Positions 3,630-37,559 are shown, counted from the first letter of the stretch. The stretch: 64,000 nucleotides of DNA from Halobacteriota archaeon (GCA_050013755.1 JBEKER010000005.1:864-64863), one strand, 5' to 3'. Made by a program: numbers and translations. The notes: generated from the letters alone by a model not told the origin.

Positions 3630-4730
3630 TTAGAGAGCAACACCGTCTACGAGTTCGATCAAAAAGCTTCGAATCGCATCCATTGACCTTTTCCACGTGG
3701 GGAGGGACTCATAGCGATTGCGAGCTGCCAAGCTCATTTCGACTAAGCGCTGTCGATTCTGCGCTAATTCAGTCAAATGGCTTGCGAGCGCAACCGCATC
3801 GCCCGGTGATATGAGGAAACCGTCACAGCCGTGCGTGATGATTTCTCCTGCTGCACCAGATGTCGTGCCGATCGCCGGCAGACCAAAACCCATAGCTTCT
3901 GCATAGACTATGCCATATCCCTCGTAAGAGGAGGGCATAAGCAGAACGTGGCTCGCTTTCATATACTTCGACAGTTCCCGATCGGGCAATATGCCTGCAA
4001 ACTGAATGTTCGCGGCCAATCCCGCCCGCGCGATTTGACGGCTTACTGCGCGAGCGTAAGATGGGTGTGCGCGGGGATTGCCGACCGCTGTAAGCGTCCA
4101 CTGATCTTTAGGCAACCTCTCGAGCGCCTTTAGAGCGATATGTAGCCCCTTGCGCGGGATCACGTTGCCCAAGAACAGTAAACGTAAGGGACCATTTAGC
4201 GCTCGATTCTTCAGCTCTTCGTCACTGATCTGTGGATTCAATCGATCACTACCCGGATACGCAATAAGACTCGCGTGCGGCTGAGCCCGAGCGACCTTAA
4301 GTAAACGTTCTGCCTCTCGACGGGTCGTCGCGCTGTTGTAAATAAGTCCCTCAACGCCGGCAAGATACCGCGATTCGACCGAGCGATAAAAGGAGTTTTG
4401 CCAAGCCGGGTGATTCAGGCTGCTTGTGAGAAGATGGACGACGGAAACAACAGGACAGCTGATCCGCTCGCGCACACGGCGGTTGAGCAGGAACAGGGAC
4501 GGGTGATTAAGCTCATCTTGAAGCATGATGTCCACGTGGAGCCCTAGTAATCGACGACGTAGATCGGGCGAGAAGTTGTCACCCAGGTTTCGCAGGTAAT
4601 TTCGCCGGGGCAATGAGATGATCGCTACGCTATCTCCGACTGCGCGCAGAACGGCAACCAACGTGCGGTCGTATAAGTAGCCACCAGAGAGCGTGTCCAA
4701 GCTTCCGTAAATTACCAGCCCAATGCGCAT
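3630..4730 (-). CDS. GT4-family glycosyltransferase
   Basis: GT-B fold with the C-terminal signature VLLMPSSYEGYGIVYAEAMGFGLPAIGTTSGAAGEIITHGCDGFL (E-x7-E). Confidence 0.85.
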   Translation of the reverse strand: MRIGLVIYGSLDTLSGGYLYDRTLVAVLRAVGDSVAIISLPRRNYLRNLGDNFSPDLRRRLLGLHVDIMLQDELNHPSLFLLNRRVRERISCPVVSVVHLLTSSLNHPAWQNSFYRSVESRYLAGVEGLIYNSATTRREAERLLKVARAQPHASLIAYPGSDRLNPQISDEELKNRALNGPLRLLFLGNVIPRKGLHIALKALERLPKDQWTLTAVGNPRAHPSYARAVSRQIARAGLAANIQFAGILPDRELSKYMKASHVLLMPSSYEGYGIVYAEAMGFGLPAIGTTSGAAGEIITHGCDGFLISPGDAVALASHLTELAQNRQRLVEMSLAARNRYESLPTWKRSMDAIRSFLIELVDGVAL

Positions 4731-4770
4731 TTTCCTGTAACGAGACTCAGAGCTTTGGGCACGGGCACAC

Positions 4771-5160
4771 TCACGTGCTGCGTTGCTTTACACGGCTGTG
4801 CGACGCCCACGCAGTGTCATTTTCCCAAATCTTCACGGTAATGACGCGCACAGCGGGGGTATTTATTCTCGCTGAGAGCACATCGCACAGAATATAAGCA
4901 AAACGCTCGATGCTGGGATTTAGTCCGGCAAACTCGGGCAACTCGTTGAGCGTTCGGTCCGCATAGTAACGGATCTGTGCATCTAACTGAGCTTCCAGGT
5001 CAACAATATCGACAAGAAAGCCGTGGCAATCCAGTTCTTTCCCTTCCAGCTGGAGTTCTACCTTATAGTGATGGGAATGATTGCGGTTCTCTTCCCCCCA
5101 ATCACCCCCTATCAGATGATGTTGAGCGACGAAATCTCGTTTGATAGCGACGGCATACAT
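4771..5160 (-). CDS. 6-pyruvoyl-tetrahydropterin synthase / QueD-fold protein (non-canonical, no catalytic Cys)
   Basis: 129 aa. FVAQHHL and NHSHHYKVELQL align with the PTPS/QueD zinc-histidine motifs, and GFLVDIVDL with the conserved G-x-V-x-D. The stop is 40 nt upstream of the GT4 start and the start is 7 nt downstream of the preceding gene's stop. Confidence 0.75.
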   Translation of the reverse strand: MYAVAIKRDFVAQHHLIGGDWGEENRNHSHHYKVELQLEGKELDCHGFLVDIVDLEAQLDAQIRYYADRTLNELPEFAGLNPSIERFAYILCDVLSARINTPAVRVITVKIWENDTAWASHSRVKQRST

Positions 5161-5167
5161 GGTCGTC

Positions 5168-7090
5168 TTAATAGGTTAATAAAATCTGGATTACCTTTTC
5201 AGGATTTTGATCCAGTAACTGATAGGCCTCTGCCGCCTGTTCGATCGGAAAACGGTGCGTTATAAGACGTAACGGTTTCAGCTGGCGGATCATTTCCCAC
5301 GCGACGTCAAAACGGCGCATCTTTGTCCATCGACCGTCAAATTCTGGCGCCATGCTGCTGACCTGGCTGCTGACTAGACGAATACGACTGCGATGGAAGC
5401 TTCCACCTAGGTTCAGGGTGGCACGCTTGCTCCCGTACCAGGAGCCGATGACGATGCGACCGTTGAAACCCGTTGCAGTGAGCGCCTGCTGCAAAGCAGC
5501 CGGGGAGCCTGAGATCTCGTACGTCAGATCTGCCCCGTTTGGCAACTGATCATGCAGCAACGTTTCGAGGGCCGCGTCGTGAGGATCGAGGGATGCTCCC
5601 GCCCCAGCCTCACGTGACGTTTGGCGGCGCAACGCGTGTTGATCCAAAGTAATCAGATTAGCGAGGGGGAAACCCGCTAAAATGCTTGTCGTCAACAAAC
5701 CGACGATCCCCTGACCAAAAACGAGCACATCCTCGCCGATCACCGGCGCACCGTCCATTACAAAATTAACGGCGGTTTCCATCGTTGGTAGGAATGCGGC
5801 GTCTTCCGCGTTTATGTCATCGGGCACCGGTAACAGTGTCGACGGGTCAGCGATGAAATGGCTTTCGTGGGGATGGAATGCCAGAACGAGACTGCCCCCC
5901 CAGTCGGCCTCCACGTCCTTGCCTAGAGCGACTACTTGTCCGACCGCCGAATAGCCGTATTTTAGCGGGTAGGCGAACTCGCCTGAAAGATCCACGATGC
6001 TCTCGTCGATGGCCATTCCTTCTGGAAACTCGCCGCGATAAATGAGGGATTCCGTGCCAGGACTGATGGCCGAGAACAACGTTTCGACCAACACCTGAGT
6101 GGCTTTGAGTTTAGGGAGCGCTTCTTCGCGGACGCTCACTTGCCGTCGGGCGGTGAAATAGAGTGATGTTGTGTGGTTGACGGACTTTCTTTCAAGCAAC
6201 TCTCCTGTGCAGGTGCGAGGCCCCAAAGAAGTGCTCTCACGCTGGCCACCGGCAGTCACCCCACCCTCTCGATGCTGCAACGTTGCACCAACGTTCAGCG
6301 AGTGATTCATCCGCAAGGCCTTGGTAAGTAGATACTTGAAGTTGCTTTCGTTTACGGTCGGATGCAATGGCAGCCGTTGCTCCACGTTCACCCCCAGCTC
6401 GCGAAGACACGCCACTTTGTGCGGGTTGTTCGTGAGGAGGCGCACCGAGCGTACCTGTAAATCCGCGAGAATCCGAGCCGCCAGGGTATAATCCCGTTGG
6501 TCAGCCTGATGCCCTAGCAGCAGGTTCGCATCGACCGTATCATAACCTTGGTCTTGCAGGTTGTACGCGCGCAGTTTGTCACGCAGACCTATTCCGCGCC
6601 CCTCTTGACGCAAGTAGATCAATACCCCGCAGCCCTCCTCTGCGATGTTCTTCATTGCGAGTTTGAGCTGTTCTCTGCAGTCGCAGCGATTAGAGCCAAG
6701 CACTTCACCGGTAAAGCACTCCGATTGAACTCGTACTAAGATATTCGATTTGCCCCGCACATTGCCCCTTATTAGGGCGAAATGCTCTTTTTCATCCTCG
6801 CGGTCGGTATACAAGCAAAGCTGAAAGTCTCCGAGGCCGGTAGGAATGCGTGCGGTGACGCCCCGCTTGACGCTTCTGTTCACTGCCTTTTCTGCGTTCA
6901 CGCTTTCACGTTCGTAATAGGGTTCGAGACCAGAGGCGTTAATACTTTTCTGTGAACAATGCGACCGAACGACCAGCGTGCGACGAAGAACTCGTGCTAA
7001 TAAACCAAAGACCGCCCCGATTCGACGGCAGAACCACAGTGTCACCGCGCACCAGGCGAAGCGATGCAACCGCAACCCACTTGCTAGCAA
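5168..7090 (-). CDS. fusion protein: GTP cyclohydrolase II (RibA-type) domain + medium-chain dehydrogenase/reductase domain
   Basis: Uninterrupted 640-codon ORF. N-terminal part: IPTGLGDFQL, VRVQSECFTGEVLGSNRCDC, YLRQEGRGIGL, RAYNLQDQGYDTVDAN, LLTNNPHK (RibA signatures). C-terminal part: VETLFSAISPGTE, YGYSAVGQVVALG, Rossmann VLVFGQGIVG (MDR fold). The start is uncertain; in-frame GTG codons at 6901 and 6883 sit closer to the RibA homology. Confidence 0.8.
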   Translation of the reverse strand: MLASGLRLHRFAWCAVTLWFCRRIGAVFGLLARVLRRTLVVRSHCSQKSINASGLEPYYERESVNAEKAVNRSVKRGVTARIPTGLGDFQLCLYTDREDEKEHFALIRGNVRGKSNILVRVQSECFTGEVLGSNRCDCREQLKLAMKNIAEEGCGVLIYLRQEGRGIGLRDKLRAYNLQDQGYDTVDANLLLGHQADQRDYTLAARILADLQVRSVRLLTNNPHKVACLRELGVNVEQRLPLHPTVNESNFKYLLTKALRMNHSLNVGATLQHREGGVTAGGQRESTSLGPRTCTGELLERKSVNHTTSLYFTARRQVSVREEALPKLKATQVLVETLFSAISPGTESLIYRGEFPEGMAIDESIVDLSGEFAYPLKYGYSAVGQVVALGKDVEADWGGSLVLAFHPHESHFIADPSTLLPVPDDINAEDAAFLPTMETAVNFVMDGAPVIGEDVLVFGQGIVGLLTTSILAGFPLANLITLDQHALRRQTSREAGAGASLDPHDAALETLLHDQLPNGADLTYEISGSPAALQQALTATGFNGRIVIGSWYGSKRATLNLGGSFHRSRIRLVSSQVSSMAPEFDGRWTKMRRFDVAWEMIRQLKPLRLITHRFPIEQAAEAYQLLDQNPEKVIQILLTY

Positions 7091-7538
7091 TTGTCACATA
7101 TAAAGAAACGACGCAAAAAACGCACAATTTTGGCTTTTTTTAACATTTTTCCGCAAATATTTTGCAATGAGCCACGAGAATTATGCAGAAAGATACTACT
7201 TTTAGTAGTGACTTGTAGTCATTTACCCTCTATGGGTGATGTGGAGGAGAAAACACCAACTGCCAACGATTGAGCAAGTTAAAATCTGCTCTAGCGTTTC
7301 TAGAACAAAGGTACCTGGACTTTAAACGCGCCGCTGACAAGAGTTTTTCTCGCCCCACATACCCCATAGAGCCACATAATTTTTTGACGATATCTCTTGT
7401 AGGTGAGCCGCAGCAAAACGTCGCCGCATTAAGGCGGCGAATCCGGGAATCACCCTCGCGACCCAATGACTCTGCAAAACACGTCCGAGTAATACAAAAG
7501 TTGAGGCGTCGCTTTCAAGCGGGTTCTGACTCGGCAGG

Positions 7539-7754
7539 TCACGAAACTCGAGCTGGCTCAAGATCAAAGACGTCGTAAACCCACTGAGTGCGCTTTTGCC
7601 AGTCGTGCCACAGCGCCTGTTTGGATATGCTGTACTTAGCGGAGAGCTTATCAAGAATCTCCGTCATGTTCAATTTTTGAACATGAAGACGATACATCTC
7701 CCGCCTTCTCGCATAGAGCTGCGCTTTGTTCTTCATAGTTACACTCTCTTCCAT
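7539..7754 (-). CDS. small HTH-like protein (orphan)
   Basis: 71-aa ORF. LNMTEILDKLSAKYSISKQALWHDWQKR looks like a helix-turn-helix. It sits alone in a ~1-kb otherwise non-coding stretch. Function unknown. Confidence 0.35.
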   Translation of the reverse strand: MEESVTMKNKAQLYARRREMYRLHVQKLNMTEILDKLSAKYSISKQALWHDWQKRTQWVYDVFDLEPARVS

Positions 7755-9756: not shown

Positions 9757-10266
9757 TTACCACGTCTCGTGATGGATACACGAAGGATTGAATCGATCAA
9801 CCGGAGCCGGAGTCTCCGCTGGGCGTCCTACAGGGATTATACACAGAGGGATAACGTTCGCGGGCAGATTGAGCAGCTCTTTAATACCTTTGACTCGTTC
9901 TTCAAAGGGGTAAACTGCTGTCCATACAGCCCCTAATCTTCGTTCGGTCGCTTCAAGCAGTATGTTTTCGGCGGCGGCTGAGCAGTCCAGCACCCACAAG
10001 CCGGGAAACTTCTCCCGATTCTTGTCCGCACAGACCGCGATTGCGACGGCTGCATATTTTACCATCGGGGCCGTGGGACTAAGCCGTGAGATCTCTTCGA
10101 GGGTCTTTCGGTCTTTGATGATGACAAAATGCCACGGCTGTTCGTTCACCGCAGATGGCGCATGCATTGCGGCGGTGAGCAACGCCTCTATGTCATCATC
10201 AGAGACGGGCTCCTCGGTGTATTTGCGGATACTTCTTCTCGACCGTATAGCTTTAGTAACGTCCAT
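9757..10266 (-). CDS. nitroreductase-family protein
   Basis: RRSIRKYTEEPVSDDDIEALLTAAMHAPSAVNEQPWHFVII is the classical nitroreductase N-terminal signature. Confidence 0.85.
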   Translation of the reverse strand: MDVTKAIRSRRSIRKYTEEPVSDDDIEALLTAAMHAPSAVNEQPWHFVIIKDRKTLEEISRLSPTAPMVKYAAVAIAVCADKNREKFPGLWVLDCSAAAENILLEATERRLGAVWTAVYPFEERVKGIKELLNLPANVIPLCIIPVGRPAETPAPVDRFNPSCIHHETW

Positions 10267-11291: not shown

Positions 11292-11960
11292 ATGGATGTC
11301 ATAGATGCTCTAAACTCTCGTTTTACGGTCCGTGCGTTTGAGCCAGATCCTGTGCAGAAGGGAACCATTCTTAAGATTCTGGATGCCGCGACGCGTGCTC
11401 CCTCATCGGGCAATACCCAGCCATGGGAACTCTTTGTTGCTGGCGGGGACACGCTGGACCGGCTTCGTCACGCTTATGACGAACGCTTCAGCAAAGGGGT
11501 GCCGGGCAGCCCCGATCTACCGGCACCGCAGCAGTGGCCCGCCGCTCTACAAAAGCGTATGGACGAACTCAAGGCCGCACGCTTTGAATCCCTGGGCATA
11601 GAACGCGACGACGCGGCGGCGCGGCATGCCATGTTTGAGCGCGCCCATCAGTTCTTTGGAGCGCCGACGGTGGTGTACCTCTGCATGGACCGCACACTCA
11701 CGGCGTGGTCGATATTTGATATGGGGCTGCTTGCGCAGAGTATCATGCTCGCGGCACAGCAATACGGCGTTGATTCAGCTGCCGCGGCACTTCTGATTTC
11801 CTACCCTGACCTCATTCGTGCAGAACTGGAAATTCCGGAAGACGTGTCGATACTAATGGGCGTCGCATTGGGGTACCGCGATCGGCAACATCCGCTAAAT
11901 CAGTACCGAAGCCCCAGACGGCCGCTGCAAGAAGTTGTACGCCTGAAAGGTCTCACGTAA
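11292..11960 (+). CDS. nitroreductase-family oxidoreductase
   Basis: RFTVRAFEPDPVQKGTILKILDAATRAPSSGNTQPWELFV plus a C-terminal LGYRD motif. Confidence 0.85.
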   Translation: MDVIDALNSRFTVRAFEPDPVQKGTILKILDAATRAPSSGNTQPWELFVAGGDTLDRLRHAYDERFSKGVPGSPDLPAPQQWPAALQKRMDELKAARFESLGIERDDAAARHAMFERAHQFFGAPTVVYLCMDRTLTAWSIFDMGLLAQSIMLAAQQYGVDSAAAALLISYPDLIRAELEIPEDVSILMGVALGYRDRQHPLNQYRSPRRPLQEVVRLKGLT

Positions 11961-14792: not shown

Positions 14793-15046
14793 AATCTCGC
14801 ATTTACGGTGCGTACTATATATGCTGATGGGGATGAAGTACGCCACGTCTGGACACGATCCCTTCTTCTCTGTGTACGCAAAATGTCCCCTACTTGCACG
14901 TAGACGGCGGTTCTTGCAAGTGCCGCAGAGCGGCGGGGGCGGCAAAAGACACAACTTATAGAGGGGCTTTCTTTGACGATATGGCGGCAAACCACGTCTC
15001 TTATGGAGTCCGACAAGTATTTACCGACCGCTGCTCTCTTTATGTT

Positions 15047-16450
15047 ATGCTCTCCCACAAAGTAGATCTCGAAAAACTCGAAGAGCCTGAGAAAGTCGTC
15101 GGGCCTGCGTACACCTCACGCTATTGCACATTACCGGTTCCAAAGTACGAACTCTCTGAAACTGGCATGCGGCCCGATTGCGCGTATCAGCTCGTACACG
15201 ATGAAATGAACTTGGATGGCAACCCCTCCCTCAATCTCGCGAGCTTTGTAACCACCTGGATGGAGCCGCAGGCAACGCAACTCATCGTCGAGAACATCCA
15301 CAAGAACTTCGCCGATCAGTTCGAGTACCCGCAGACGGAGGTGATACACAAGCGGTGCGTCAACATGCTCGCACGCCTCTTTAATGCGCCCGACCCTGTA
15401 ACGTTTGCCGGCACCGCAACGGGCGGCTCGTCCGAAGCGGTGATGCTTGGCTTACTAGCCCACAAGTGGAAATGGAAGAAGCGCCGCGAAGCAGAAGGTG
15501 CGGCGTGCGATAAGCCGAATCTGATCTTCGGTGCCGATGCACACATTTGCTGGGACAAATTTGCCAAATACTTCGACGTTGAGCCGCGGGTGATACCACT
15601 CGAGGAGGATCGTTTTACCATCACCAGGGAGGCAGTTACTGACCTTATCGACGAAAATACTATCTGTGTCGGCGTTATCCTGGGGACGACGTTCACTGGC
15701 GAGATCGACCCAATCGAGGAGATTAACGACCTGCTTGTCGAAGTAAAGAACACACGCGGATGGGATATTCCCATTCACGTCGATGCCGCAATCGGGGGAT
15801 TCATCCTGCCGTTTACGCAACCAGAGCTGCGGTGGGATTTCAGACTGTCCCAGGTGAAATCGATCAACGTGTCCGCCCACAAGTACGGCTTGGTATACCC
15901 CGGCCTTGGGTGGCTTATCTTCCGCGATACCAGCGACCTGCCAGCGGACCTCGTGTTTTACGTAAACTATCTCGGCGATGAGATGGCCAGCTACACCCTG
16001 AATTTCTCGCGCGGCAGCGGCATGTTGCTCGCGCAGTACTACAACTTGCTACGGCTTGGTTGGAAAGGGTACGCGATGGCCGCCGGGGCAGTCCTCGAAA
16101 ACTCCCAATACCTGACCAAGCGGCTCGTGGACACGGGGTATTTCGATATCCTCAACGCAGGTGAGATTCTCCCTGTCGTCACGTTCCAGCTCAAAGAACC
16201 CGTCGATTTCTCCGTGTATGATCTATCCGCCAAGCTGCGGGAACGGGGTTGGATCGTCCCCGCCTACACGCTGCCACCAAATGCCGACGCCATCCCCCTG
16301 ATGCGAGTCGTCGTCCGACAGAACTTCAGTCGCGACATGGCAGATCTCTTCGTTGACGACATTAAAAAGGCGTACGCCGCTCTGCTAGCACCCAAAACCA
16401 AGACAATCGTGAAGCAACGATCGCCGCGCGAAGCACATCCGGTATCGTAA
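15047..16450 (+). CDS. gadB: glutamate decarboxylase, GadB type (PLP-dependent), copy 1
   Basis: [46 protein letters not shown]-lysine motif [26 protein letters not shown] 15047 gives 467 aa. Confidence 0.9.
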   Translation: MLSHKVDLEKLEEPEKVVGPAYTSRYCTLPVPKYELSETGMRPDCAYQLVHDEMNLDGNPSLNLASFVTTWMEPQATQLIVENIHKNFADQFEYPQTEVIHKRCVNMLARLFNAPDPVTFAGTATGGSSEAVMLGLLAHKWKWKKRREAEGAACDKPNLIFGADAHICWDKFAKYFDVEPRVIPLEEDRFTITREAVTDLIDENTICVGVILGTTFTGEIDPIEEINDLLVEVKNTRGWDIPIHVDAAIGGFILPFTQPELRWDFRLSQVKSINVSAHKYGLVYPGLGWLIFRDTSDLPADLVFYVNYLGDEMASYTLNFSRGSGMLLAQYYNLLRLGWKGYAMAAGAVLENSQYLTKRLVDTGYFDILNAGEILPVVTFQLKEPVDFSVYDLSAKLRERGWIVPAYTLPPNADAIPLMRVVVRQNFSRDMADLFVDDIKKAYAALLAPKTKTIVKQRSPREAHPVS

Positions 16451-17262: not shown

Positions 17263-17340
17263 ATGAATGTAAATGCACCTAAAATAACTGCACTGTTAAG
17301 AGCAGCCCCGTTTTCACCTGAGGTGATTGGCGATGTCTGA
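17263..17340 (+). CDS. 25-codon upstream ORF overlapping the sulfatase start
   Basis: GGGAGGGA lies 6 nt upstream of ATG 17263. It encodes MNVNAPKITALLRAAPFSPEVIGDV, and its TGA (17338-17340) overlaps the sulfatase ATG 17333 (ATGTCTGA). Confidence 0.3.
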   Translation: MNVNAPKITALLRAAPFSPEVIGDV

Positions 17341-19681
17341 ACCGTGGAAGGGTAAATTAGCCGTCGATATCCGCGATGCGACTCCTGACTGGACGCCGTT
17401 CGTGCAGCCCACTGCACCTGAAAACGCACCGAACATCCTTTTCATCATCTGGGACGATGTTGGATACTCGACAATGGATGTCTTTGGCGGGCCCGTCGAG
17501 ACGCCCACGATGCATCGCATCGCAGAGATTGGGCTGCGCTATTCAAATTTCCACACAACCGCGCTGTGCTCACCGACCCGGTCATGCTTATTGACAGGGC
17601 GAAACGCGACCAGCAACAACATGGCGTGTATTACCGAAGGGACGAATGGATTTCCGGGAAGTAGCGGGCGCATACCGTTCGAGAATGGGACGATCGCTGA
17701 AGTGCTAAACGAGCGAGGGTGGAATACCTACGCCGTGGGGAAATGGCATTTGACCCCTGCCGAGGAGGAGGATGCCTCCGCGTGGAAACATCGCTGGCCG
17801 CTCGGGCGCGGGTTTGAACGCTTCTACGGGTTCATGGGCGGCGAGACGAACCAATGGTACCCTGATCTCATCTACGATAACCATCCCGTCGACCAGCCCT
17901 ACGCACCTGAGGACGGCTACCACCTCTCTAAGGATCTCGTCGACAAGGCCATAGAGTTCATCCGAGACGCCAAGGTAGTCGCGCCGGACAAGCCGTTCTT
18001 CATGTATTTCTGCCCCGGCTGTGCGCACGCCCCGCACCACATCTTCAAGGAGTGGGCTGAAAAGTACAAGGGCAAATTCGACATGGGCTACGAGGCGATT
18101 CGTGAGGAGATCCTAGCCAACCAGAAGAAGATGGGGATTTTGCCAGAGAACACGAGCCTCTCGCCAATCAACCCGCACGGAGAGCCTCACGTCTCCAGTC
18201 CGGATGGTAAGCCGTGGCCACTGCTTGATTGGGTTCGCCCGTGGGATTCGCTGTCGAACGACGAGAAGAGGATGTTTATCCGCATGGCTGAGGTGTATGC
18301 GGGGTTTGTATCGTATACCGATCACCATATTGGTCGCCTGCTCGACTACCTTGAGGAGTCGGGTCAGCTTGACAACACGATCATCATCGTCGCCTCCGAC
18401 AACGGCGCGAGCGGCGAGGGCGGTCCAAACGGTTCCGTCAATGAAGTCAAATTCTTTAACAATGTTCCCGACACGATAGAAGAGAACATAAAGCACATTG
18501 AGGAGCTGGGAAGCCCATCGACCTATAACCACTACTGTACAGGCTGGGCGTGGGCCTTCGATACGCCCTTCCCGTACTGGAAGCGCTTTGCGGGCTACGA
18601 AGGGGGGACTGCAGACATGTGCCTCGTTGCGTGGCCACAAGGGATTCCAGCACGAAGTGAAGTGCGACACCAGTACGTTCACGCTATCGACGTCGTGCCT
18701 ACGATCTACGACCTACTCGACATTGAACCGCCTGCGGTACTCAACGGATACACGCAGAGCCCCATTGAGGGCGAAAGCTTCAAGCCCACCGCTGACGATC
18801 CGAGTGCGCCCGAAAAGGAGACCCAGTTTTATTCTATGCTCGGCCAGCGCGCCATCTACCATCAGGGGTGGCTCGCGAACACCGTGCACCCCCCTATCTC
18901 AGGATGGAGCAATTTCGCCCACGACGTATGGGAGTTGTACAACCTTCAGCAGGACCGGGCGCAAATGAACAATATCGCCGGACAGTACCCTGACAAACTC
19001 GAACTCCTCAAGGGACTATGGAACTACTTCGCCGGCGTTTACAACGCACTGCCACTCGACGATCGCACGCCGCTCGAAATTATGATGACAGAGCGCCCAC
19101 AACCAGCAAAGCCACGAAACCGCTACATCTACTATCCCAACACGGCAGACGTCGCTGAGAGCGTCGCAGTCAACATCCGTGGACGTTCGTACACGATAGC
19201 CGCAGCCGTTGTTGTTGACACCACTGAGGTGGCTGGTGTGCTCTTCGCCCAAGGTCATCTCATGGGTGGCCATACCCTATTCATCAAGGACAAGAGGCTC
19301 CACTATGTCTACAACTGGCTCGGGGAAGACATTCAAAAAGTCACCTCGAATATAGAGATCAGCACTGGTCGGCACATCTTCACTGCTGAATTCGGCAGGA
19401 CGGGCCAAGACCCGCAGACCAGGAGTGCCCTCGGCACGCTCACCCTCTATATTGATACCAAGCAGGTGGGACAATCCGAGATTAAGACGCAGCCCGGCTA
19501 CTTTAGCCTGGTGGGCGAAGGGCTGTGCGTCGGTCGCGACAGTGCGTCTCCGGTCTCGCCGGACTACGCGCCACCTTTCACTTTCACCGGCGGAACCATT
19601 GACAGAGTGGTGGTAGACGTTGCCGGTGAGCCATTCGTGGACCACGAGAAAGAAGTCATGGGGTGGATTATGAGGGACTAG
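17333..19681 (+). CDS. arylsulfatase (Cys-type, formylglycine-dependent)
   Basis: NILFIIWDDVGY and LCSPTRSCLLTGRN (C-x-P-x-R FGly motif), GKWHL, VASDNGA. ~780 aa with an extra C-terminal domain. No signal peptide is evident. Confidence 0.9.
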   Translation: MSEPWKGKLAVDIRDATPDWTPFVQPTAPENAPNILFIIWDDVGYSTMDVFGGPVETPTMHRIAEIGLRYSNFHTTALCSPTRSCLLTGRNATSNNMACITEGTNGFPGSSGRIPFENGTIAEVLNERGWNTYAVGKWHLTPAEEEDASAWKHRWPLGRGFERFYGFMGGETNQWYPDLIYDNHPVDQPYAPEDGYHLSKDLVDKAIEFIRDAKVVAPDKPFFMYFCPGCAHAPHHIFKEWAEKYKGKFDMGYEAIREEILANQKKMGILPENTSLSPINPHGEPHVSSPDGKPWPLLDWVRPWDSLSNDEKRMFIRMAEVYAGFVSYTDHHIGRLLDYLEESGQLDNTIIIVASDNGASGEGGPNGSVNEVKFFNNVPDTIEENIKHIEELGSPSTYNHYCTGWAWAFDTPFPYWKRFAGYEGGTADMCLVAWPQGIPARSEVRHQYVHAIDVVPTIYDLLDIEPPAVLNGYTQSPIEGESFKPTADDPSAPEKETQFYSMLGQRAIYHQGWLANTVHPPISGWSNFAHDVWELYNLQQDRAQMNNIAGQYPDKLELLKGLWNYFAGVYNALPLDDRTPLEIMMTERPQPAKPRNRYIYYPNTADVAESVAVNIRGRSYTIAAAVVVDTTEVAGVLFAQGHLMGGHTLFIKDKRLHYVYNWLGEDIQKVTSNIEISTGRHIFTAEFGRTGQDPQTRSALGTLTLYIDTKQVGQSEIKTQPGYFSLVGEGLCVGRDSASPVSPDYAPPFTFTGGTIDRVVVDVAGEPFVDHEKEVMGWIMRD

Positions 19682-19905
19682 CTGTCTTCACATTTGATAG
19701 TACGACACCCGGCGACGACTCTCTGTGCCAAGAGACGGACCGAATGAAGGAAAGCCGTCGGGTGCCTACCCCCCACAAAATCGAATAAAATAAACAGGGA
19801 AAGCAGATCCTCACGAGCACAATATTTATCCGCACATTGAGTCGTTAGCAATCGTTCGCCTTCAACACTGAAGTGTGCTCGATTCCGTTTCTTTTGAAAA
19901 CCCTT

Positions 19906-21177
19906 TTACGCTCCGTGACATTTCTTGTACTTCAATCCGCTGCCACAGGGGCACGGATCGTTGCGGCCCGCCTTTGCCGGCGCAATCGGCTGACGATGCT
20001 TCGGCATCACTTCGGCCGGCGCACGCCCCTGCCGCAGGAGCGTAGTCATCTGCCGCATGGCCTGATCAATGTGCGCAAAGAAGGCCCGATAGCCCGCGCA
20101 GAGATAGTTCAGCCCGAGTTCGCCCGTTGCTGTCTCTATAAAACGGTTCTTAGGACATTCCCCATGGCACGCAAAGCGGACCGGACACTCTAAACAGTAC
20201 CGCGGGAGCGTGTCGCGCTTATTCAGTCCGAACTGACGTTGCGCATCGGAGGACACCAGTTCGACAAGCGGCGTGTCCAAGATATTCCCCAGCAGGTAGT
20301 TTGGCTCTACGAAGTGATCGCACGAATAGAGGTCGCCGTTATGCTCGAGCGCGAGTGCGGTGCCGCAGGTCGGGGAAAAGATGCATACGGCAGGCCGCGC
20401 CCCGGCCCACGCCGCTAAGGCGGCGTCGAAATGCTGCACGAACACGCGACCGACGTCGCGGGTGACCCATTCATCAAATATGGTGATCAGAAAACGACCC
20501 CATTGCTCCGCGGTAACTGAGCGATCCGTTACCGTGTTCCCTTCTTGGAAGCCCGTTTCGTTATGCCGCTCCACGATGGGTATAAACTGGATAAACTGTG
20601 CCCCCACGTCGTCGCGCAAGAACCGATACACCTCGGCGGGGTGCACAACATTGGCAGCACTAACTGCGCACAAAATGTTAAACTCGACATTGTGTTCTTG
20701 CAACAGACGTGCAGCATGGAGCACGCGGTCAAACGTCGGGTGTCCCGCCTTATCTACGCGATAGGCGTCGTGCAGTTCCCGCGGCCCGTCAAGACTCAGA
20801 CCAACGAGATAGTTGTTCTCGCGGAGAAAGATGCACCACTCCTCATCCAAAATGGTGCCGTTCGTTTGTAGGGTACGCTCAATGGTCATGTCAGAACGCG
20901 CGTATTTTTCCTCGCACGCGATCGAACGACGGTAGAAATCAAGCCCCATAAGGGTGGGTTCGCCGCCTTGCCACGCAATCGTCGCGTGCGGGATTCGCTG
21001 CGCGGCGAGGTACTGACGTAGATATGATTCCAGTACCTCGTCAGTCATCCGAAAGCGGCTGTGCGGATAGAGCTGCTCTTTCGCCAAGAAAAAGCAGTAC
21101 GAACAGTTCAAGTTGCAGATGGCCCCCGTCGGTTTTGCGAGAATGTGAAAGGTTGCCAGCGAGTTTGTTGAATCCAT
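19906..21177 (-). CDS. anaerobic sulfatase-maturating enzyme (radical SAM/SPASM) with C-terminal SEC-C motif
   Basis: CNLNCSYCF radical-SAM cluster motif, auxiliary cluster motif [14 protein letters not shown] (C-x2-C-x5-C-x3-C), C-terminal [16 protein letters not shown]. The track ORF starts at TTG 21222; ATG 21177 is preferred. Confidence 0.85.
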
Positions 21178-21429
21178 ACCGTGTCCATGCCGCGCACCGG
21201 GTTGCCCGCCGGTCACAGCCAAGTGCTTGTCCTAATTACTGTTTTTCGCACCCGCGTATATGAGTTCCGCTGCGCGAGTATGTGGGAAACGCCAAGCGAA
21301 ACTGATCGTCATTGCAGTAATTCTTCATACTCGTGAGGCGATCGAGCAGCTAATCAACCAGCTCCTTTTCGAAGTAAACAGTAATGTTCTTGCAAAACGG
21401 GGGCTTGCGCTGAGCGCTGCGCCCTTCTT

Positions 21430-36158: not shown

Positions 36159-37559
36159 ATGCTATCTAAGAAAGTGGATTTGAGCACGAAGAAGGAATCA
36201 GAGACTGATCACACTACGACGTATGGCCGTCGCTATTTCGGTGAGCCAGTGCCGAAATATGTCATGCCTGACGATGGCATGCCTGCGCGCGCTGCCTACC
36301 AGCTCATTCACGATGAGCTGAACCTCGATGGGAATCCCTCCTTAAACCTTGCCAGCTTTGTCACCACGTGGATGGAGCCGGAGGCGACCCTGCTCATCGC
36401 GGAAAGCCTTGACAAGAATTACGTTGACAATGATGAGTACCCTCAAACCACGGTTATACAGGAACGCGTGGTCAACATGCTCGCCCGCTTGTTCAACGCC
36501 CCAGAAGACTGCGAATCCGTTGGAACCGCGACGATAGGGTCATCAGAGGCCATTATGCTCGCCGTATTGGCGCACAAGTGGACCTGGAGAAAGCGCCGAC
36601 AGGCAGAGGGAAAGCCGTGCGACAACCCAAATATCGTGATGGGGGCGGACGTCCACACGGTATGGGAGAAAAGCGCCCGCTACTTCGATGTGGAACTGAA
36701 ACTGATCCCTCTCCAAGAGGATACCTACATCGTCAGCGCCGATGAAGTCGCTAAAGAAGTTGACGAGAACACCATATGCGTTGCCGCGGTTCTAGGTACC
36801 ACCTTCACCGGACAGATGGACCCGATCAAGGAAATCAACGACCTTCTCGTTGACATAAAGAAGACGAAAGGGTGGGACATACCCCTGCACGTCGATGGGG
36901 CAAGCGGCGCGTTTGTCGCACCGTTCGTCGATCCTGATCTCGAGTGGGACTTTAGGCTCGAACAGGTGAAATCAATCAACGCGTCGGGGCACAAATACGG
37001 CCTGGTTTACCCTGGTATTGGGTGGCTCGTCATGAAGGATAAAAACGATCTCCCTGAAGAGTTGGTATTCCGAATAACCTACCTAGGAGGGGAGATGACG
37101 AACTACTCCCTCAACTTCTCTAAGAATAGCAGTCCCATTATCGCCCAATATTATAACTTCATACGGCTGGGCAAAAGCGGCTATGCTGATATTATGACGA
37201 ATATGATGAGCAACAGCCATTACCTCGCCGAAAAGTTGCGCGATACGGGCAAGTTTGAGATCATTAACAAACAAAAGACACTTCCTCTCGTTGCACTTCG
37301 TCTAAAAGATGCGGCTTTCACGGTTTTCCAGCTGTCTAAAATGCTCAGGCAAAAAGGCTGGATTGTGCCTGCATACTATCTTCCCGAGAACGCCCAGAAC
37401 GTCGCCGTGATGCGGATGGTCATCAAGGAGAACTTCAGCAGAGACATGGTGGAACTGCTCTTTAGCGACATCATGCAGGCGTACCACAGCCTCGAACTGT
37501 CTGAAGCTGAGAGAGAAGAACGCGCAAAGGGCAAGAAGAAGCTGAGTCTGCTATATTAA
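36159..37559 (+). CDS. gadB: glutamate decarboxylase, GadB type, copy 2
   Basis: [66 protein letters not shown]; 466 aa. Confidence 0.9.

Follow-up and report, generated by a model that had tools for sequence, protein, structure and literature searches.

A three-gene archaeal operon related to the Streptomyces SCO6650 region is a minimal form of a widespread gene cluster predicted to make a GTP-derived small molecule

The SCO6650 and SCO6655 proteins of Streptomyces coelicolor, homologues of PTPS and GTP cyclohydrolase II (GCH II), were reportedly solved and assayed around 2006–2008 with no product assigned. Here we describe a related system in an archaeon: a three-gene operon on a 64-kb stretch of DNA from a Halobacteriota archaeon (GCA_050013755.1 JBEKER010000005.1:864-64863; the whole stretch is referred to as the window), which encodes a GCH II–MDR dehydrogenase fusion protein, a PTPS-fold protein and a GT4 glycosyltransferase. 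Neighbourhood networks tie the SCO6650-type class, PTPS-IV, to the families PF00925 and PF01872, and FGPAQ has been given as its signature (PMC5445326), while the only functional remark on PTPS-IV since 2016 is an unpublished one (PMC5041015). The link of PTPS-IV to GCH II and RibD_C is already in the literature, and the cluster, which is present in hundreds of genomes, is not categorically new. We predict that the cluster family makes a dedicated GTP-derived small molecule, likely a pterin glycoside formed without GTP cyclohydrolase I, and hold this reading with moderate confidence; a glycosylated pterin or pyrimidine is a plausible predicted product. The features of the operon in window coordinates are:

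5168..6901, minus strand: fusion gene of GCH II and MDR dehydrogenase, 577 aa from the probable GTG start; the mechanical open reading frame (ORF) extends to TTG 7090
6293..6874, minus strand: GTP cyclohydrolase II (RibA-type) domain of the fusion (TIGR00505, alignment with E. coli RibA)
5171..6178, minus strand: MDR-fold dehydrogenase domain of the fusion (ADH_zinc_N, BchC-like, AlphaFold/Foldseek)
4771..5160, minus strand: PTPS-fold (T-fold) protein of the PTPS-IV/SCO6650 lineage (PF01242, fold match to 3D7J)
3630..4730, minus strand: GT4 glycosyltransferase, GT-B fold and retaining-type (PF00534, PF13692, E-x7-E)
6902..7105, minus strand: probable promoter and non-coding 5′ leader (alignment of loci L007–L009; inferred promoter)

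ORF calls and the gaps read from the sequence confirmed three co-directional minus-strand genes separated by 7 nt and 40 nt, and the domain identities given in a preliminary description of the locus were all recovered by hidden Markov model searches in Pfam (GTP_cyclohydro2, ADH_zinc_N, PTPS and Glycos_transf_1). As that description had stated, no riboflavin, queuosine or folate genes are adjacent (none within about 8 kb in the Pfam gene list of an identical contig, L001), and the set indeed matches no textbook route to any of these three compounds. Of the two families that mark the PTPS-IV neighbourhood, GTP_cyclohydro2 is found in the window operon and RibD_C in the bacterial versions. Searches of the 64-kb window by tblastn with bacterial queries revealed no homologues of RibD_C, the methyltransferase or the CDP-alcohol transferase (nothing below E = 0.9). 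Because the window lacks these three, the archaeal operon is a minimal form of the PTPS-IV/SCO6650 cluster family.

The S. coelicolor region had been named in the preliminary description as a lead, and comparison bears this out. SCO6650 (PDB 3D7J) is the closest solved relative of the window PTPS-fold protein by sequence (E 1.1e-13 in a PDB profile search, the next match being at 8e-6), and the Streptomyces neighbourhood, that of a protein 98% identical to SCO6650, combines MDR, PTPS-fold, GT4 and GCH II genes in one cluster as the window does. This neighbourhood contains CDP-OH_P_transf, MDR, PTPS, GT4, a methyltransferase-like ORF, LPG_synthase_TM, a creatininase-family ORF and GCH II. Identities to the window proteins are low, with ~27% for PTPS, 34% for MDR and 31% for GT4. 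Unlike the window, the Streptomyces cluster contains a creatininase-family gene, a CDP-alcohol transferase, a flippase-like gene and a variant GCH II, in which Met replaces the catalytic-site Tyr (LRAM versus KLRAY). The creatininase-family ORF (PF02633, E 4e-67; locus L087, 14119–14883, minus strand) lies beside the Met-variant GCH II and is not among the called genes of the record. The Met variant, SCO6655, reportedly does not proceed beyond the formylated intermediate, and the archaeal formamide hydrolase ArfB is a member of the creatininase family. On this premise, the Streptomyces pair of Met-variant GCH II and creatininase-family protein would again yield 2,5-diamino-6-ribosylamino-4(3H)-pyrimidinone 5′-phosphate (DARPP), following an ArfA/ArfB-like logic.

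The operon had been called an orphan, a view which our genome scan refutes: with one genome per GTDB species, at least 499 loci were found, and the cluster family is present in at least 499 species-level genomes. Window domains and reference bacterial proteins were placed by tblastn on the best 80 of these at least 499 loci, and partners within 5 kb of the PTPS gene were counted in the 47 of the 80 whose flanks extend for at least 5 kb in each direction. GT4 accompanies PTPS most constantly (45 of 47), followed by MDR (38/47), a S-adenosylmethionine (SAM) methyltransferase (37/47), GCH II (28/47) and RibD_C (25/47), and all partners lie on the PTPS strand apart from a single methyltransferase. 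The adjacency of GT4 and PTPS in 45 of the 47 complete loci supports the earlier view of the trio as a functional unit. Moreover, the order GCH II, (RibD_C), MDR, PTPS, GT4, (methyltransferase) recurs across phyla and in both domains of life, so that the absence of the neighbourhood from other genomes, given in the preliminary description as a possible refutation, was not seen. Hosts of the cluster include Actinobacteria, Chloroflexota, Desulfomonile (Desulfobacterota), Binatia and Halobacteriota.

Two alternative fusions attach a redox enzyme to GCH II. RibD_C follows GCH II directly in 22 of 22 bacterial loci, and a single-ORF fusion was confirmed in three of them (L030, L038 and L043), while GCH II is fused to MDR in 6 of 6 archaeal-type loci; about 50 clusters with the GCH II::MDR fusion were found, nearly all of them in Halobacteriota. 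Synteny together with these two fusions effectively excludes chance co-location. The bacterial RibD_C domain scores above the ribD_Cterm cutoff (168.5 versus 150.15), matches archaeal diaminopyrimidine reductases as well as RibG and lacks the Lys seen at the aligned position of B. subtilis RibG. In Desulfomonile tiedjei, RibD_C, MDR, PTPS, GT4 and the methyltransferase are present and the cluster has no GCH II of its own, which implies that it draws on the DARPP pool of the cell.

Several further genes accompany the cluster in particular lineages. Extra class-I methyltransferases lie between MDR and PTPS or between PTPS and GT4 in some Chloroflexota (L069 9135–10049; L043 10230–11147), and one Chloroflexota cluster carries a PaaI-like thioesterase between RibD_C and MDR (L043 8392–8841), which hints at lineage-specific tailoring of the product. 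In ~26 bacterial loci, a protein of ~118 aa without a Pfam or NCBIfam match (L049 1852–2208 and homologues) is encoded no more than a few kb from the cluster, and its gene often directly precedes GCH II::RibD_C. LspA, RluD and threonine aldolase, located downstream of the methyltransferase in some Chloroflexota, were rejected as cluster members, since they represent housekeeping synteny of a single lineage.

About 30 of the 80 loci have a CDP-alcohol phosphatidyltransferase gene no more than a few kb away, at varying position and orientation, and the L044 protein carries a fused flippase-like domain of the HpnL/LPG_synthase_TM type. These genes would fit a membrane or envelope glycoconjugate, in which the CDP-alcohol phosphatidyltransferase would attach a GTP-derived polyol-phosphate as head group, GT4 would add the sugar and the flippase-like protein would carry out export. 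Such a pathway would parallel the PgsA1/PimA logic of phosphatidylinositol mannosides, and both lipid gene families also occur in the Streptomyces cluster. However, both genes are absent from the 64-kb window and from the nine archaeal-type loci that were examined, and the CDP-alcohol transferase lies within 5 kb in only 11 of the 47 complete loci, the constant core being PTPS, GT4 and the methyltransferase. We consider a glycoconjugate of this kind unlikely.

The PTPS-like protein (4771..5160) matches PF01242 with 90.8 bits against a cutoff of 22.4 (E 8.2e-26) and remains below the cutoffs of both QueD (TIGR03367, 44.1 versus 89.25) and PTPS (TIGR00039, 30.2 versus 125.5). In its AlphaFold model (predicted local distance difference test, pLDDT, 90.8) the PTPS fold is confirmed: the best Foldseek match is 3D7J (template modelling score, TM, 0.86), followed by QueD and PTPS structures, with a range of TM 0.75–0.86. 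The protein is not Cys-less as had been claimed, since Cys45 and Cys92 are present; only the catalytic Cys is missing, and the zinc His triad H14/H28/H30 is kept. Glu24 occupies the position of the QueD catalytic Cys in 120 of 120 close homologues, among which H14, E24, H28, H30 and E113 are all invariant. This H-E-H-H...E pattern is held in ~90% of 50%-identity representatives, down to ~33% identity, whereas the relay His of the PTPS family is replaced by Arg69 in the window protein and by Arg, Lys or Gln among its homologues. Altogether, 5498 relatives were found at E <= 1e-5, and they include sequences at 60–68% identity from Chloroflexota, Desulfomonile tiedjei, Binatia and Acidobacteriota.

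The window protein and the SCO6650 type have H14, H28, E113 and a C-terminal AWAS motif in common. In contrast to the window protein, residues 24 and 30 of the Streptomyces PTPS are both Ala, the zinc triad is missing and the FGPAQ motif is present; among 120 SCO6650-type proteins, H14, H28 and E113 are kept and positions 24 and 30 are Ala. At the positions of the PTPS-IV signature FGPAQ the window protein reads WGEEN, and distant PTPS relatives show intermediate motifs such as FGPEG..HSH. Because of these intermediates and the persistence of H-E-H-H...E in ~90% of the representatives, the window type, judged from the alignments, looks to be the main form of this lineage, one that retains zinc, with FGPAQ marking a degenerate branch.

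Three established PTPS classes were considered and rejected. QueD/PTPS-I does not fit, as the Cys of CxxxHGH is replaced by Glu24 and the TIGR03367 score is under its cutoff; PTPS-II (CxxxxxHGH) is ruled out by the absence of a Cys at position -6, the replaced His of the Asp-His relay and a TIGR00039 score below cutoff. The motif of PTPS-III is ExxHGH (PMC5041015), while the window protein has E-N-x-x-H-S-H, in which one more residue separates the Glu from the first His. PTPS-III and the Plasmodium PTPS resemble the window protein in having a Glu for the catalytic Cys beside an intact zinc His triad, and Plasmodium vivax PTPS structures, in which E37 is labelled the catalytic residue, are among the fold matches. 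The window protein differs from them in its E-x3-H-S-H spacing, in a Glu at the very position of the QueD Cys, in the Arg, Lys or Gln that replaces the relay His and in its non-folate context.

The first domain of the fusion is a canonical GCH II. GTP_cyclohydro2 matches the fusion ORF at aa 78–241 (E 3.7e-64, Pfam), and the domain exceeds the RibA cutoffs of NCBIfam (TIGR00505, 234.7 versus 205.85; NF001591, 248.4 versus 148). In the alignment with E. coli RibA (2BZ0, E 1.6e-55), which covers SECFTGEVLGSNRCDC and KLRAY, the zinc Cys triad (C..C.C) is kept and the Tyr of KLRAY aligns with Tyr105 of E. coli KIRAY. Its predicted conversion of GTP to DARPP, formate and pyrophosphate is supported by homology. 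The canonical catalytic make-up of this domain would also be expected if a riboflavin GCH II, an ordinary QueD and a cell-wall GT4 were merely adjacent without a shared function. We regard such a coincidence as extremely improbable in view of the synteny across phyla and domains, the two independent gene fusions, a PTPS homologue that scores too low for QueD and has no catalytic Cys, and the absence of queC/E or rib genes nearby.

The second domain of the fusion matches ADH_zinc_N (37.6 versus a cutoff of 31.8, E 2.5e-9, Pfam), and the models that come nearest to it are those of polyol dehydrogenases and of BchC (bacteriochlorophyllide a dehydrogenase), the latter far under its cutoff. The BchC model TIGR01202 matches over its full length and scores 72.9 against a cutoff of 291.25, so that BchC was rejected and the JGI name ‘BchC’ on homologues represents an over-annotation. 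We looked for the catalytic zinc ligands of this dehydrogenase family, namely the Cys of GxCxxD, the His of GHE and the Glu or Cys at about position 155, and found none of them in the MDR domain; SAISPGTE and YGYS stand in their places and are conserved across the family. The domain carries a Rossmann motif, GQGIVG (GxGxxG), and an invariant Asp183 at the end of strand beta-2, which aligns with Asp203 of sorbitol dehydrogenase, and this combination of residues points to NAD as the cofactor. The Foldseek neighbours of the AlphaFold model (pLDDT 86.5) are polyol and threonine dehydrogenases, with TM 0.75–0.77 to RspB, butanediol dehydrogenase and sorbitol dehydrogenase; with regard to the substrate, the fold search returned only such generic neighbours.

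The GT4 protein (3630..4730) is recognized by PF00534 (Glycos_transf_1; 106.7 versus 26.4, E 1.2e-30) and PF13692 (Glyco_trans_1_4; E 3.9e-28), and its translation contains the E-x7-E motif as EGYGIVYAE. Tetrahydrobiopterin glucosyltransferases are among its PDB matches. The similarity to the BGluT type is restricted to residues 185–324 of the C-terminal donor domain (E ~1e-8 to 6e-8) and ranks below several unrelated GT4 enzymes; for acceptor specificity, the PDB matches yielded generic donor-domain alignments only.

Based on these assignments, a pathway can be proposed. By homology, GCH II would convert GTP to DARPP. The cluster contains no deaminase, and the 2-amino-4-oxo ring, which is recognized by PTPS-fold enzymes, would therefore be retained. 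A pyrimidine reductase would then produce the ribityl form; in bacteria this would be the RibD_C domain fused to GCH II, and in the archaeon presumably the housekeeping enzyme of the riboflavin pathway. In a third step, the NAD-type, zinc-less, BchC-like MDR could oxidize a secondary alcohol of the side chain, most simply at C2′, which would give the same keto-amine as an Amadori rearrangement, and this keto-amine would close onto the 5-amino group to form a pterin of the (dihydro)neopterin-phosphate type. The PTPS-like enzyme might next anchor the 2-amino-4-oxo ring on Glu113 and bind the side-chain oxygens to zinc via H14/H28/H30, with Glu24 acting as the base, so that the side chain is rearranged or shortened. 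Finally, GT4 would add a sugar to a side-chain hydroxyl. In most bacterial and some archaeal versions one or more SAM methyltransferases may modify the product, and the CDP-alcohol phosphatidyltransferase and flippase-like protein often present in bacterial versions suggest a further phosphodiester or membrane linkage there. We put forward this complete scheme tentatively: a reductase and an NAD-dependent 2′-dehydrogenase would replace the Amadori rearrangement, and remodelling by a Zn/Glu enzyme of the PTPS-IV type and glycosylation by GT4 would lead to a new pterin glycoside, which bacteria may link to a phospho-alcohol or a membrane lipid.

The early steps of this scheme resemble the archaeal and fungal riboflavin pathway, in which GCH II (or III) is likewise followed by a RibD_C-family reductase without prior deamination. 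However, deaminase, lumazine synthase and riboflavin synthase are all missing from the cluster, which branches instead to MDR, the PTPS-like protein and GT4. Since GCH II and RibD_C are the first two archaeal and fungal riboflavin steps and lead exactly to 2,5-diamino-6-ribitylamino-pyrimidinone, the product could also be a glycosylated (and methylated) form of this open-chain compound, with MDR and the PTPS-like protein modifying the ribityl chain and no ring being closed. Small acceptors, either polyol-phosphates or hydroxy acids, are glycosylated by GT4 enzymes of the MshA/BshA type, whose models are among the weak NCBIfam matches. On the other hand, 5-aminopyrimidines with a keto side chain cyclize readily, the characterized PTPS-fold enzymes all act on pterins, and both the Glu anchor and the zinc site for the side chain are conserved, which makes an open-chain product rather unlikely.

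The preliminary description had assumed that pterins require GTP cyclohydrolase I. This premise overlooks a route from the GCH II product published for Chlamydia, where RibA and TrpF convert the GCH II product to dihydroneopterin monophosphate (PMC4161248). The route proposed for the window would resemble the Chlamydia pathway in deriving a pterin from the GCH II product and bypassing GTP cyclohydrolase I. In Chlamydia, the conversion is carried out by the Amadori isomerase TrpF and the pterin feeds folate synthesis, whereas the window cluster has no TrpF-like gene; here the reductase and dehydrogenase pair or the PTPS-like protein would perform the conversion, and a glycosylated product is predicted. 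The pterin glycoside pathways of cyanobacteria and Chlorobium (for example tetrahydrobiopterin glucosyltransferase BGluT, PDB 5ZER/9V0L) likewise combine a PTPS-fold enzyme with a GT-B glycosyltransferase that acts on a GTP-derived pterin; their first enzyme is GTP cyclohydrolase I and their PTPS is of the Cys type, and the similarity of BGluT to the window GT4 is confined to the generic donor-binding domain.

Several points weigh against the pterin glycoside and the route proposed to it. Which of the MDR and PTPS steps comes first and which position is oxidized are guesses, and the PTPS-like protein itself might perform the Amadori rearrangement and ring closure, with MDR acting later. Neither the archaeal-type loci nor the Streptomyces clusters have a RibD_C nearby, so that the reduction either is not common to all clusters or depends on an enzyme supplied in trans. 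Similarly, since SCO6650-type members have lost Glu24 and His30, the zinc chemistry is not required family-wide. Furthermore, pterin glucosyltransferases do not stand out among the matches of the GT4 protein, as many other GT4 enzymes match it at least as well. Finally, a review places PTPS-IV in coenzyme F420 synthesis, citing unpublished work (PMC5041015). That the cluster serves F420 or deazaflavin biosynthesis, as this remark on PTPS-IV would suggest, we consider very unlikely. The hosts lend it some support, as Actinobacteria, Chloroflexota and methanogen-related Halobacteriota overlap the known F420 producers. However, the accepted F420 pathway is not known to need a PTPS, GT4 or MDR, the cluster has no deaminase for a uracil-type Fo precursor, and no cofG/H, fbiC or cofC/D/E genes were present in the neighbourhoods whose genes were listed.

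For the fusion gene, the ORF 5168..7090 reported previously is present, but its start at TTG 7090 is probably wrong and GTG 6901 is likelier. The segment 7090–6902 contains frameshifting indels in the three closest relatives (alignment of L007–L009), and homologues of the fusion are 573–579 aa long, so that a protein of 577 aa from GTG 6901 is, on this comparison, most likely. The gene would then be preceded by a probable non-coding leader of ~175 nt behind a TATA-like box, tttatatg, at ~7105–7097, as an inferred promoter. Within the leader, a block of ~45 nt at ~6953–6911, cagaaaagtattaacgcctctggtctcgaaccctattacgaa, is better conserved than its flanks in L007–L009. In Rfam, the window gave no match at the gathering threshold and the region 6850–7270 none at the E-value threshold; since the fold energy of the leader is also no better than that of shuffled sequences (z = +1.6), a riboswitch was rejected. 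Directly upstream of the operon and on the same strand lies a 65-aa ORF (MKNKAQLYARRREMYRLHVQKLNMTEILDKLSAKYSISKQALWHDWQKR...; window 7539–7736, minus strand), which is kept only in the closest relatives (L001, L002 and L007–L009), has no Pfam hit on record and may encode a small helix-turn-helix regulator.

An identical operon is present on six metagenomic contigs, and the operon also occurs, at 93–97% protein identity, on a 2.1-Mb chromosome of a metagenome-assembled ‘Euryarchaeota archaeon’; close homologues carry the NCBI label ‘Halobacteriota archaeon’. The operon has no GC anomaly and therefore shows no sign of very recent transfer. RibA-type GCH II is typically absent from archaea, and when the 60–68% identity to homologues in bacteria is also considered, an older transfer between domains is suggested. 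Contigs carrying the archaeal-type GCH II::MDR fusion include some assigned to Acidobacteriota, in L013 (Candidatus Acidiferrales bacterium; 65–78% identity to archaeal loci) and P0290 (Blastocatellia bacterium), reflecting either cross-domain transfer or mis-binning.

Elsewhere in the window, a sulfatase of 784 aa adjoins a radical-SAM/SPASM protein that ends in a SEC-C motif (17327–21222), which looks like a pair of sulfatase and anaerobic sulfatase maturase in an archaeon. Two nitroreductase-family genes (9757–10266, minus strand, and 11292–11960, plus strand) lie just past a divergent MFS transporter gene, and two pyridoxal phosphate-dependent group II decarboxylases are encoded at 14894–16450 and 36159–37559; neither the nitroreductase-family nor the decarboxylase genes have an evident tie to the operon.

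In the literature available to us, searched for this combination of genes and for SCO6650/6655, we found no paper describing the product or the wider gene set. Likewise, we found no description of the zinc-retaining main form of the PTPS protein, of GT4, MDR and methyltransferase as constant partners, of the alternative GCH II fusions or of the three-gene archaeal core.

Overall, archaea hold a stripped-down three-gene form of a Streptomyces-type pathway, and the main form of this family combines an intact zinc/Glu active site with a canonical GCH II. The GCH II::RibD_C and GCH II::MDR fusions tie redox enzymes to the first step. The four activities represent a small and well-defined set which is open to in vitro reconstitution and could settle an old question. 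If the proposed reading is true, the cluster might provide a second route by which organisms make pterins, along with a new glycosylated metabolite derived from GTP and widespread among microbes of soil and sediment, and would define a new class of GTP-derived metabolites common to Actinobacteria, Chloroflexota, Desulfobacterota and Halobacteriota.

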